Below are positions 3,869 to 43,643 of a stretch of DNA of 64,000 bases, piece by piece. Made by a program: the position numbers and the translations under genes. The stretch is from Alphaproteobacteria bacterium. GTDB lineage: Bacteria > Pseudomonadota > Alphaproteobacteria > RF32 > CAG-239. The notes below the pieces were generated by a model. The model had not been told where the DNA came from and did not search any database. It was given only the letters and a program-made list of their open reading frames with translations. Location: positions 97,198-161,197 of the forward strand of contig JAZNXK010000011.1 in the NCBI GenBank assembly GCA_045593845.1. The letters run 5' to 3'. How positions within the stretch are numbered: the first letter of the stretch is position 1; the number at the start of each line of letters is the position of its first letter.

Positions 3869-3944
<76 letters not shown>

Positions 3945-4054
3945 AAAACAAAATTACCTTTATATTATTTGGTTGAAAAATGCAAGAATTTTGTTATCAT
4001 ATATTTAATATTTTTACTTTAACATAAGCAAATGTTATTGAGAAAGGACGAAAT

Positions 4055-4939
4055 ATGAGTGATAAAAAGCTTAATTTTAAGGTGGATTATTCAAAATTTG
4101 ACATTGTTACGGAGTATAATGTCAAAAATCAGCGTTATCCATTGGTTCTTTCCGTTCCTCATAGCGGCAGAATTTTTCCGCCAGAGTTTTTAGCAAATGT
4201 TTCGGTTGATGAAAATGAACTTCGTTCCAATGAAGATCCCTATGTTGATGAATTGATTATGGAAGCTTCCAATAATGGAATTCCCTTGCTTTCTTTGAAT
4301 ATTGCAAGGTCTTTTATTGATGTTAATCGTGACGTTTTGGAAATAGACTCGTCAATGTTTTATAATTATCCCGATAGCGATGTGGTTACAAACAATAAGA
4401 GGTGTCGCGCTGGTTTGGGATTGTTGCACAGAATTACCGCAGATAGAAAAAATATATATGATGGTCTTTTGGATTATAATGAAGCGCAAGCCAGAATTAA
4501 AAATGTGTATAATGTTTATCATAAATCTTTGCAAAAACTCATTGATAAAACACTGAAAAAATTTGGTTTTTGCTTGGTGCTTGATTGTCACTCCATGCCC
4601 TCAAAAATTTGTAATATTATGCAGGATAATCGCCAAATTGAGGTTTGTTTAGGGACATTATTTGAACAGAGTTGTTCCGCGGAGATTATTGAGTTTATGA
4701 CGCAAAGGTTGGAACAAAAATATAATGTGAGTTTGGATTGTCCGTATTCAGGTGCGTTTACAAGTTTTAACTATTGTCAGCCACGCAAAAGTGTTTTTAC
4801 CCTGCAAATGGAGATAAATCGCAAGCTTTATGAGGACGAGGCTGTGTATAAAAAAAGTGCAAATTTTCAATATGTTAGCACAGATATATGTGATGCGATA
4901 ACGGCTTTGGCCAATTTTTTGCTGGATTTTAAAAAATAA
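4055..4939 (+). CDS. N-formylglutamate amidohydrolase family protein
   Basis: Family-like motifs (LSVPHSGR...FIDVNRD...LDCHSMP). Confidence 0.5.
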   Translation: MSDKKLNFKVDYSKFDIVTEYNVKNQRYPLVLSVPHSGRIFPPEFLANVSVDENELRSNEDPYVDELIMEASNNGIPLLSLNIARSFIDVNRDVLEIDSSMFYNYPDSDVVTNNKRCRAGLGLLHRITADRKNIYDGLLDYNEAQARIKNVYNVYHKSLQKLIDKTLKKFGFCLVLDCHSMPSKICNIMQDNRQIEVCLGTLFEQSCSAEIIEFMTQRLEQKYNVSLDCPYSGAFTSFNYCQPRKSVFTLQMEINRKLYEDEAVYKKSANFQYVSTDICDAITALANFLLDFKK

Positions 4940-38697: not shown

Positions 38698-38732
38698 AAA
38701 AAGCACCGCGTTTAGGCGGTGCTTTTTTGCAT

Positions 38733-39314
38733 TTATTTGCTTATCATATCCGCACAATTGACTTCATTTTGAGCAAGTTTTATTTGCTCGCTGAGAGCTT
38801 GTGTCGATTTTCCGCTTAATTCTGATAAAGCTTGCAAATAATCTCCGTTAGTGTTGCTTGAAAAAGCCTCATTTTGTAATTCGGGATAATTAAATAAGAC
38901 AAATCGTTTGATTTGTGAGCTGTGATGGAAATTTTCTTTTTCAGCACGCGTCATTTTTTTCTTTTCCATGTTGAGATAAACACCGTCTTGACGATATTTC
39001 CATGCTGCTCCGTCAACAAGGTCGGTAGTCCAGCTGTAAACAAAAGTAATATTTCCTATTGCGGCAGGATTGATTTGTGTTTTTAGAGCCATCCCTACAT
39101 CTTCATATCCTTCTTTTTTGCCGACAATAGACATACTTCCCGAGGCTCGTTCGGCAGGATAAACGCAGGGAGTTTTGCAGGCAAAGGCACCATCAATATA
39201 GACTGACACTTCTTTAACGTTTGAATCAAAACTGATGTCTTGACTTGTTCCGCTGAAAACTGTGCCGCAACCGGCAAGAGACAGAACGCCAGTAATTAAA
39301 TAAATTTTTTTCAT
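38733..39314 (-). CDS. lipoprotein of unknown function (lipobox LAGC|G)
   Basis: Signal peptide plus lipobox. It lies downstream of the structured leader. Confidence 0.55.
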   Translation of the reverse strand: MKKIYLITGVLSLAGCGTVFSGTSQDISFDSNVKEVSVYIDGAFACKTPCVYPAERASGSMSIVGKKEGYEDVGMALKTQINPAAIGNITFVYSWTTDLVDGAAWKYRQDGVYLNMEKKKMTRAEKENFHHSSQIKRFVLFNYPELQNEAFSSNTNGDYLQALSELSGKSTQALSEQIKLAQNEVNCADMISK

Positions 39315-39333
39315 AGTTCACTTCCTTATCAGT

Positions 39334-39525
39334 ATTAAAAAAAAGCCGCTTGATGAGAAGCGACCGGAAGTTGGAAACTATTCATACGTATAGTGCGACA
39401 TATTGACCGCAAAGGCTATTTTGTCACCTTCCGGTCAGTTGACCAGAAGGCATTAAATGTCGTTTTAATGCAAACGCGTATGAATGAGGTTTCCACACCT
39501 CGAACAGGCTCATCAATCCCGTCTA
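39334..39525 (-). ncRNA. candidate structured RNA / riboswitch-like leader (~190 nt) with its own promoter and an intrinsic terminator ending ~20 nt before the lipoprotein start codon
   Basis: All seen in sequence. -35 TTGACA (39555-39560 rc) and -10 TAGTAT (39532-39537 rc) with 17-nt spacing. Long-range pairing GUGGAAACCUCAUUCAUACG with CGUAUGAAUAGUUUCCAAC. Mutually exclusive pairings among CUUCUGGUCA, UGACCGGAAG and CUUCCGGUCG. Terminator GUCGCUU-CUCAUC-AAGCGGC followed by U8. Confidence 0.35.
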
Positions 39526-39531
39526 ATTTGA

Positions 39532-39560
39532 ATACTATGGTGATGTTTTGTTAATGTCAA
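39532..39560 (-). promoter_or_regulatory. sigma70-like promoter TTGACA-17-TAGTAT driving the structured leader
   Basis: Read on the minus strand; it lies between the eno terminator and the RNA element. Confidence 0.45.
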
Positions 39561-39627
39561 TAATAAATTTGGCAACAAAAAAGCACCGTATTTTTACGGT
39601 GCTTTTTTTTAGCAGTGTTTTGAAAAA

Positions 39628-40920
<1,293 letters not shown>

Positions 40921-41587: not shown

Positions 41588-42205
41588 ATGAGAGTTTTAA
41601 TTGCTGACGATCATGCGCTTTTTCGTGATGCTTTGGGAAAACTTGTTGAGGAGTTGGATGCTTCTGCCGGTGTGGTGCAGGTTTCCAGCTATTCGCAGGC
41701 ATTAAAAATTTTGAAAAACGAGCCGCCTTTCGATATGATTATTTTTGATTTGGAAATGCAAGATTTGCTTTCGTGGGAACAAGGAATCGACGAGCTTAAG
41801 AAAGCGGCAAATGGGGCGAAGTTGGTTGTGGTTTCGGCAATAGAAAATCCGAGAAATATCCGCAGTGTGTTGGAGCGCGGTGTTAACGGTTATATCAGCA
41901 AGCGCTCGGAGAGTAAAATTCTGTTAAATGCCTTGAAGTTGATTTTGGAGGGCGGCACTTATATTCCTCCGGTTTTGTTGTTGCAGAATAATCTTGCGGA
42001 AAAAGGAAGTGCTAAAAATTTGACCAATCGGCAGAGCCAGGTTTTGGGGTTGGTGGCGCAAGGAATGTCAAATAAGCAAATTGCTTATGAAATGGGAGTT
42101 TCAGAGGCAACAGTAAAGCTGCATATCAATGCACTGTTACGATCAGTCGGGGCAAACAACCGAACCCAAGCAGTGATTACGGCACAGAAAATGGGGATAA
42201 TTTAG
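41588..42205 (+). CDS. orphan response regulator, REC + LuxR/FixJ-type HTH
   Basis: MRVLIADDH...D55 context, and a C-terminal LTNRQSQVLGLVAQGMSNKQIA HTH. Confidence 0.8.
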   Translation: MRVLIADDHALFRDALGKLVEELDASAGVVQVSSYSQALKILKNEPPFDMIIFDLEMQDLLSWEQGIDELKKAANGAKLVVVSAIENPRNIRSVLERGVNGYISKRSESKILLNALKLILEGGTYIPPVLLLQNNLAEKGSAKNLTNRQSQVLGLVAQGMSNKQIAYEMGVSEATVKLHINALLRSVGANNRTQAVITAQKMGII

Positions 42206-43568: not shown

Positions 43569-43643
43569 GCGGGCGTAGCTCAGGGGTAGAGCGCAACCTT
43601 GCCAAGGTTGATGTCGAGGGTTCGAATCCCTTCACCCGCTCCA
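43569..43643 (+). tRNA. tRNA-Gly (anticodon GCC)
   Basis: Hand-folded: anticodon stem CAACC/GGTTG with loop TTGCCAA, T arm GAGGG-TTCGAAT-CCCTT, encoded CCA. One C-A mismatch in the acceptor stem. Confidence 0.8.

Follow-up and report, generated by a model that had tools for sequence, protein, structure and literature searches.

A family of structured leader RNAs that probably couples a terminator/antiterminator switch to the ribosome-binding site of surface-protein genes in uncultured gut and rumen Alphaproteobacteria

A stretch of alphaproteobacterial DNA of 64,000 nucleotides (nt), the whole of which is referred to here as the window, contains between eno and a lipoprotein gene an interval (39334–39525) that an initial annotation had flagged as a structured RNA of about 190 nt and as a candidate riboswitch or attenuator. 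This interval is one copy of a widespread 5′ leader RNA encoded on the minus strand, and every element of the layout proposed in the initial annotation was located on that strand. The stop codon of eno at 39628 is followed by a hairpin terminator at approximately 39610–39577 and by a sigma-70-type promoter (TTGACA-17-TAGTAT, 39532–39560), which matches the consensus at 10 of 12 positions and from which transcription is predicted to start near 39525. The leader ends in an intrinsic terminator, the hairpin of which (39365–39344, a stem of eight pairs) is followed by U8 extending to 39337. The ribosome-binding site (RBS) AAGGAAG (39327–39321) lies in a stretch (39312–39327) that contains the module-specific RBS sequence AAGGAAGU, the GGAAGU part of which is complementary to a strand of the leader designated as D, and the start codon. 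The gene that the leader would regulate (38733–39314, with its ATG at 39314) encodes a PEGA-domain lipoprotein of 193 amino acids with the lipobox LAGC, for which an exact-sequence look-up gave no record. The functional unit exceeds the flagged interval, extending from the promoter at 39560 to the RBS and start codon at 39312, and the window carries a single copy of the leader.

The 197-nt RNA has a predicted folding energy of −68.7 kcal/mol, compared with −43.8 ± 3.8 kcal/mol for dinucleotide shuffles (z = −6.56), and none of 200 shuffled sequences equaled it. The structure of minimum energy comprises a hairpin at the 5′ side (P0), a long helix between the 5′ and 3′ parts (P1a/P1b), the internal hairpins P2, P3 and P4, and the terminator.

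Homologs of the leader are present at no fewer than 170 loci of uncultured gut and rumen Alphaproteobacteria, and homologs of the lipoprotein were likewise found only in such bacteria. The copy set comprises 49 loci fetched via the lipoprotein, at least 120 metagenome loci found by RNA pattern, and one copy from a viral collection. In about 47 of the 49 protein-derived loci (three sequence types summed), the leader lies directly 5′ of the PEGA lipoprotein gene, whichever gene is upstream; eno is an accidental neighbor, as the upstream gene varies by locus and is eno only in the window and in locus L001. The at least 120 further loci came from a metagenome scan for the RNA only, and all 80 of those tested carry covariance-model matches of 30–163 bits. 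The leader RNA can be more conserved than its protein: in L003, the RNA is 83% identical and the lipoprotein 52%. The sole match in the viral collection, L170 (8467–9900), resides on an element with integrase and type IV secretion system-like genes, where the leader is located upstream of two small membrane or SHOCT-like open reading frames (ORFs). Another locus, L004, contains an alphaproteobacterial two-piece transfer-messenger RNA (tmRNA) at 1665–2008, which confirms the class assignment.

The initial annotation had recognized no known riboswitch motif in the RNA, and a search of Rfam 15 (4227 models) agrees with this. At the gathering score, only tRNA and tmRNA matches were obtained in the window and in seven loci representing the three types; the score was not reached by the cyclic di-GMP-I and -II, T-box, EAR or alphaproteobacterial small RNA families of that release. 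At E ≤ 10, nothing rose above noise over 39380–39500, and EAR and all other families remained without a match. No description of this leader was found in the literature searched. The leader represents a previously uncatalogued, new family of cis-acting attenuators.

The copies are 190–250 nt long, have a multi-helix junction, and fall into three sequence types (A, B and C) with one architecture. In each type, an upstream arm (U) is complementary to a central strand, which we call strand C. In type A, to which the window copy belongs, strand C is GACYGGAAG and D is AAC-UUCCRGUC; the corresponding strands are GGRYGGAUGU and AAC-AUCCGCCC in type B, and GGUCGGGGAG and AAC-UCYCCGAYC in type C. As L011 and L033 show, the same genome can have a type A or B leader on a pilin-like gene and a type C leader on the lipoprotein gene, indicating that the types are paralogous and not just lineage variants.

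Covariation of two alternative folds, designated as OFF and ON, was scored on 33 genome-derived type A and B sequences. The OFF fold, composed of P0, P1a, P1b, P2, P3, P4 and the terminator, was 86.8% paired, with 40 pairs changed on both sides; none of 500 shuffles reached its score, no slid register came close, and the frequent G-U pairs are compatible with the gene strand only. A blind mutual-information scan for further tertiary pairs gave back only the known helices and, besides them, signals that do no more than tell types A and B apart. Coordinates below refer to the minus strand of the window.

P0 (39503–39523), with a conserved stem and a variable loop, was 99.5% paired, and all six of its pairs were changed on both sides; a hammerhead-like CUGAUGA in its loop was rejected because of its position within a hairpin loop and its lack of conservation. 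The 5′ strands of the closing helix (39477–39495; P1a, 39495–39489, and P1b, 39485–39477) have strong covariation support and were recovered by the blind scan. Their 3′ partners lie within 39372–39394 (P1b, 39388–39380, and P1a, 39378–39372), a stretch that can also form a local hairpin, P5 (ACUAU/AUAGU). At the 5′ side, GAGGU (39501–39497) and ACCUC (39490–39486) form the hairpin HL5 (39486–39501), the loop of which is the 5′ strand of P1a; it has partial covariation support and occurs in the type-specific variants GAGGU/ACCUC, AGGG/CCCU and GGAGC/GCUCU. The choice between a local GAGGU/ACCUC hairpin and a long 5′/3′ helix, as proposed in the initial annotation, is found in the window, and both pairings are conserved with covariation in the relatives. 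A further extension of P1 between the 5′ element and D (P1x), present in the minimum-energy structure, is poorly supported across the types and was not relied on.

In the P2 region (39450–39476), the loop of a hairpin (CGUUU/AAACG) has a second pairing partner in the strand immediately 5′ of the U arm (GCAUU.../...AAUGC). This loop pairing is modeled as a candidate H-type pseudoknot or an alternative hairpin; the H-type pseudoknot, with a second stem that would abut the U arm, is the probable form, and its counterpart in type C is the pairing of GGAUAUA with UAUAUCC. The U arm itself, CUUCUGGUC (39441–39449), acts in the model as an anti-antiterminator and pairs with strand C, GACCGGAAG (39428–39436), to form P3. 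This helix was 78% paired, with changes on both sides in four pairs, and its pairing reached 100% in type C. P4 (39395–39427), in which all six outer pairs were changed on both sides, has A-rich internal loops (AAAAUA/CAAUA) that are conserved in types A and B and replaced with GUAUGUUCAG/AAAG in type C; an 11-nt tetraloop-receptor reading of the P4 loop was discarded, as its register does not fit. The D strand, AACUUCCGGUC (39362–39372), has a 3′ part in common with the 5′ arm of the terminator and a 5′ part, AACUUCC, that is complementary to the RBS.

In the ON fold, strand C pairs with D. Pairing of the C:D helix was 97% in types A and B, where five of nine pairs had changed on both sides, and 100% in type C. 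P5, which appears when C:D is forced, was 92% paired with three of five pairs changed on both sides. P5 is built from strands that otherwise make up the inner ends of P1a and P1b, so that one fold excludes the other, yet both are under selection. The dual pairing that the initial annotation had assigned to the central GACCGGAAG, with either CUUCUGGUC or CUUCCGGUC, was likewise found and is conserved with covariation, and the comparative alignment of relatives suggested there as a check revealed conservation and covariation of both alternative folds. A terminator hairpin followed by at least five U residues in 8 nt is present in 138 of 140 unique copies, and in 135 of 138 the best C:D duplex covers 3 nt or more of the terminator's 5′ arm.

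The same module also takes in the RBS, a feature that had escaped the initial annotation. In types A, B and the type C sub-type C1, the RBS and the 5′ half of D are exactly complementary: GGAAGU(U) with AACUUCC in type A, GGAUGUU with AACAUCC in type B, and GGAGAGUU with AACUCUCC in C1. D matches the RBS by Watson–Crick pairing over 6 or more contiguous nt in 48 of 86 leader genes vs 7 of 585 control genes, and when the D types were swapped, the longest match was 4 nt. RBSs of the leader type are rare in genes of the same loci that lack a leader (GGATGT, 1 of 560; GGAAG, 3 of 236). D accordingly has up to four partners, namely the 5′ element, strand C, the 3′ arm of the terminator, and the RBS.

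We consider it likely that the RNA is a cis-acting 5′ leader with its own promoter and a terminator/antiterminator switch coupled to the RBS, which gates the downstream gene. In the default OFF state, P1a/P1b would close the RNA and the U arm would hold strand C in P3, so that the terminator would form and most transcripts, about 190 nt long, would stop at the U-tract. This default is indicated by the energetics: across 111 leaders, structures with C:D imposed are less stable than the terminator fold by a median of 16 kcal/mol, and C:D is in the minimum-energy structure of only 3. In the ON state, pairing of strand C with D would close a three-way junction that also contains P4 and P5, with the 5′ element folded into a hairpin of its own. 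By taking up at least the first 3–4 nt of the terminator's 5′ arm, C:D would allow RNA polymerase to read through; by occupying the anti-RBS part of D, it would leave the unusual RBS free. The simplest reading is that C:D both blocks termination and keeps D off the RBS. A putative effector would act co-transcriptionally, most plausibly at the 5′ domain or pseudoknot beside the U arm, where it could stop U from capturing strand C; the signal would presumably turn the switch ON. The transcription-attenuation reading of the initial annotation is supported by the at least 170 loci, the two-partner covariation, the overlap of C:D with the terminator, and the fixed distance to a gene on the same strand. 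Its label of riboswitch or attenuator holds for the attenuator part, and a riboswitch in the strict metabolite-binding sense is a candidate only.

Several observations weigh against this reading. The gap of about 16 kcal/mol implies that the switch is workable only kinetically or with a strong factor, and in most type B copies an A-C mismatch makes the terminator-invading portion of C:D weaker. Thermodynamically, D:RBS pairing is not favored in the modeled read-through transcript, so that it is covariation and enrichment that argue for it, and the complementarity is missing from approximately one-quarter of the copies as well as from sub-type C2. Since the search pattern itself dictated part of D in the metagenome set, the invariance of D there is no evidence. 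Conservation of unpaired nucleotides does not extend over all three types, which is unusual for a single metabolite pocket, and the analysis yielded no effector. Finally, tandem promoter–RNA–terminator units with no gene between them (L011, L036, L051, L068 and L099) are ill-suited to a purely cis-acting element.

A co-directional ORF follows 159 of 167 copies, and in about 140 of these 159 it starts 20–35 nt past the match, a spacing that leaves room for an RBS and none for a separate promoter. Just before P0, a promoter of the form TTGACA/TTTACA-17-TAnnnT with at least 9 of 12 consensus positions is present in 40 of 120 unique copies, vs 19 of 120 in the reverse-complement control. The downstream genes encode PEGA lipoproteins (n = 46), autotransporters (n = 39; Pfam Autotransporter, 9e-48), and prepilin-type proteins (n = 30), the last recognized by the N-terminus G|RSMIEMLGVLAIIGVLS and having no Pfam match, together with several families of small lipoproteins and signal-peptide proteins, an outer-membrane beta-barrel protein (OMP_b-brl), GT2/GT92 and DXD glycosyltransferases, and an EcoRI-type methylase. 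The leader-controlled genes constitute a cell-surface regulon, which was not noticed in the initial annotation either. Leaders are located before DNA methyltransferase genes (EcoRI-type methylase and an N6-methylase-like protein) in L062, L075, L139 and L157, and the combination of methylase, adhesin, pilin and glycosyltransferase genes is similar to the contingency loci that undergo phase variation in other host-associated bacteria.

As to the surroundings of the window copy, two palindromes (38701–38724 and 39581–39604) bracket the cassette of promoter, leader and lipoprotein gene. They are near-identical bidirectional terminators (AAGCACCG...CGGTGCTT), and no such twin match occurred in shuffled sequence. 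A LuxR-type response regulator (Response_reg and GerE domains; 41588–42205) is encoded about 2 kb from the leader, past eno, and three tRNA genes are located at 3872–3944, 43569–43640 and 47499–47572.

Copies without an ORF raise the alternative that the element is primarily a gene for a trans-acting small RNA (sRNA), i.e., a terminated RNA of about 200 nt whose CU-rich D strand (AACNUCC) would pair with the RBSs of the family or which would titrate a protein, with read-through being secondary. In tandem arrays, only the last unit precedes an RBS and a gene. L011 (1748–2975) has four near-identical tandem type C units, each having its own terminator and a TTGACT-17-TAAAAT promoter; an RBS and the lipoprotein gene come after the fourth unit only, and C-to-U and A-to-G changes in units 1 and 2 keep the pairings as G-U wobbles. 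L036 (2201–2975) has at least three tandem type C units, and L099 (1099–1548) and L051 (489–962) have two leaders each, about 70 nt apart and with their own promoter-like sequences, which show clear −35 and −10 hexamers in L099. The first unit of L099 is followed by a vestigial RBS, GGAGGAAG, and no start codon, and looks like a unit that lost its gene by recombination between leaders. The second copy in L002 (3659–3840) is a divergent orphan (strand C, GGUUGGAGAG; D, AUAUCCAACC) behind which lie another terminator and no real ORF; farther downstream (3960–4235), a stretch of about 140 nt occurs twice as a direct repeat. The tandem arrays speak for a function of the terminated RNA itself, be it that of a trans-acting anti-RBS RNA or of a decoy. 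The sRNA alternative also draws on the strong predicted promoter and the terminator that each copy has, on a default fold that terminates, on the complementarity of D to the type-specific RBS over 7–8 nt, and on the Brt RNAs of Bartonella, which have the same layout and for which both cis and trans action has been proposed (PMC5387305). However, a purely trans-acting RNA needs no copy before every target, and the copies with an ORF mostly lie at the fixed distance from the start codon described above, so that their position is not target-independent. In a simple sRNA, there would be no role for U, C and D covarying three ways around the terminator, and the prediction for the OFF fold has D paired. 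We therefore regard a primarily trans-acting sRNA as unlikely, although the terminated RNA of a cis-acting switch may additionally act in trans.

The energetics bear on a second alternative, in which the leader is constitutive and unregulated: the terminator would only damp expression, and the alternative pairings would be folding intermediates or by-products of G-rich and pyrimidine-rich composition, with no signal involved. The overwhelming preference for the OFF fold and the lack of a ligand-like invariant core across all types are in line with this. Nevertheless, strand C stays complementary to both U and D via compensatory changes within and between types, the mutually exclusive P5 and P1b both covary, and about 200 nt of structure with a matched RBS before dozens of genes would be costly for a plain attenuator. 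This explanation is quite improbable. Even less credible is a mobile or repetitive element similar to miniature inverted-repeat transposable or repetitive extragenic palindromic elements, whose inverted repeats would mimic helices: the element is multicopy, about 200 bp long and rich in long inverted repeats, shows signs of recombination (the tandem copies and the L170 copy on an integrative element), and in the window belongs to a cassette flanked by twin hairpins, but it is always co-directional with the next gene at a fixed distance, carries a promoter, a terminator and a matched RBS, lacks transposase-type terminal repeats, and has covarying helices made strand-specific by G-U pairs. Ribosome-mediated attenuation via translation of a leader peptide, which the chain of overlapping hairpins ending in a terminator and an AUG in the P0 loop of some copies might suggest, is just as hard to credit, since the frame, length and stop codon of the short ORF differ among close relatives (in alignments read by eye) and the substitutions are stem covariation rather than codon-like.

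If the RNA is a cis-acting switch coupled to the RBS, its effector might well be a small molecule or ion and could almost as readily be a protein or RNA factor; a physical or kinetic signal seems rather improbable. A ligand-binding RNA is suggested by the length of 190–250 nt with a multi-helix junction, the probable pseudoknot, the conserved P4 loops, and the many copies per genome. As in riboswitches, a covariation-supported domain of the 5′ untranslated region is co-directional with the gene, and an alternative pairing excludes the terminator. The absence of an unpaired core shared with type C and the large energy gap count against a single ligand. Cyclic di-GMP was considered because of the pilin and adhesin genes of the regulon; no GEMM match was obtained, and a crude regular-expression search over 1.2 Mb of loci found no GGDEF, EAL or PilZ motif, which is weak evidence. 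For CsrA/RsmA, GGA is present in strand C and in the RBS of all types, and a similarly crude search over the same 1.2 Mb found no CsrA-like ORF. The type B sequences AAGGAUGU, AACAAGGAUGUU (RBS) and ACGGAUGU (central strand), e.g., in L120 and L051, resemble RUACARGGAUGU, which we take to be the E. coli CsrA consensus obtained by SELEX.

More broadly, and only tentatively, the leaders can be viewed as a new riboswitch-like sensor class for a gut or host signal that governs, in an uncultured order of gut Alphaproteobacteria, a contingency-style surface regulon of autotransporters, pilins, lipoproteins, barrels, glycosyltransferases and DNA methylases and has a built-in cis/trans circuit. In such a circuit, the terminated leader would carry an anti-RBS for read-through mRNAs, and the tandem orphans would set the expression threshold. 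The leaders would be an abundant new family of regulatory RNAs, with at least 170 copies, in poorly known, uncultured bacteria of the human gut and rumen, and they point to a single RNA-based layer of control over the surface proteins presented to the host. The well-defined orphan switch, with two covariation-supported folds, is a place to seek a new ligand or RNA-binding factor. It is unusual in design for one strand to be terminator arm, antiterminator partner and type-matched anti-RBS at once, and this triple role makes transcriptional and translational control, and possibly titration in trans, testable in one element.

Among known systems, terminator-type ON riboswitches include the cyclic di-GMP-II switch upstream of pilA1 in Clostridioides difficile and the adenine switch of pbuE. 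The leader resembles them in being structured, in having a junction and a pseudoknot-like domain, in its tiers of anti-antiterminator, antiterminator and terminator, and in occurring in many copies before related genes. Unlike them, it has no Rfam match and no unpaired core in all types, and its antiterminator strand is at the same time an anti-RBS, covarying as such with the RBS.

Antitermination leaders, such as those that respond to LoaP and other NusG paralogs, the RAT sites of BglG/SacY, the targets of ANTAR proteins, and the processive antiterminator RNAs put and EAR, similarly combine a promoter, a structured leader and an intrinsic terminator with surface or polysaccharide genes. However, they are short and simple or precede long operons. 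Neither the dual hexaloop hairpins of ANTAR targets nor a RAT-like element was seen in the leader by eye, no formal search having been made, and no candidate protein for protein-dependent antitermination was found.

LhrC1–5 of Listeria are tandem CU-rich anti-Shine-Dalgarno sRNAs, and SreA and SreB, which are cited in PMC5387305, are riboswitch-derived trans-acting RNAs. Tandem promoter–terminator units, a pyrimidine strand complementary to the RBS of surface-protein or lipoprotein genes, and possible action in trans are common to these RNAs and the present leader. In contrast to these RNAs, nearly every copy here is fused to its target gene, and the pyrimidine strand is one half of a terminator/antiterminator switch.

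Brt1–9 of Bartonella henselae are multicopy, highly structured RNAs of 194–203 nt, each located immediately upstream of a poorly transcribed gene and having a terminator-like 3′ end (PMC5387305). They have been proposed to act as both riboswitches and trans-acting sRNAs and are tied to the BadA autotransporter adhesin; they precede genes for helix-turn-helix regulators ('Trp') and are reported to be Bartonella-specific (PMC5387305). In contrast, only 1 of the 159 downstream genes found here is helix-turn-helix-like, and surface proteins are encoded instead. To our knowledge, no covariation-supported switch has been described for the Brt RNAs. Compared by description only, Brt1–9 represent the nearest described case, in that they likewise occur in a host-associated alphaproteobacterium and are approximately 200 nt long, multicopy and gene-adjacent.
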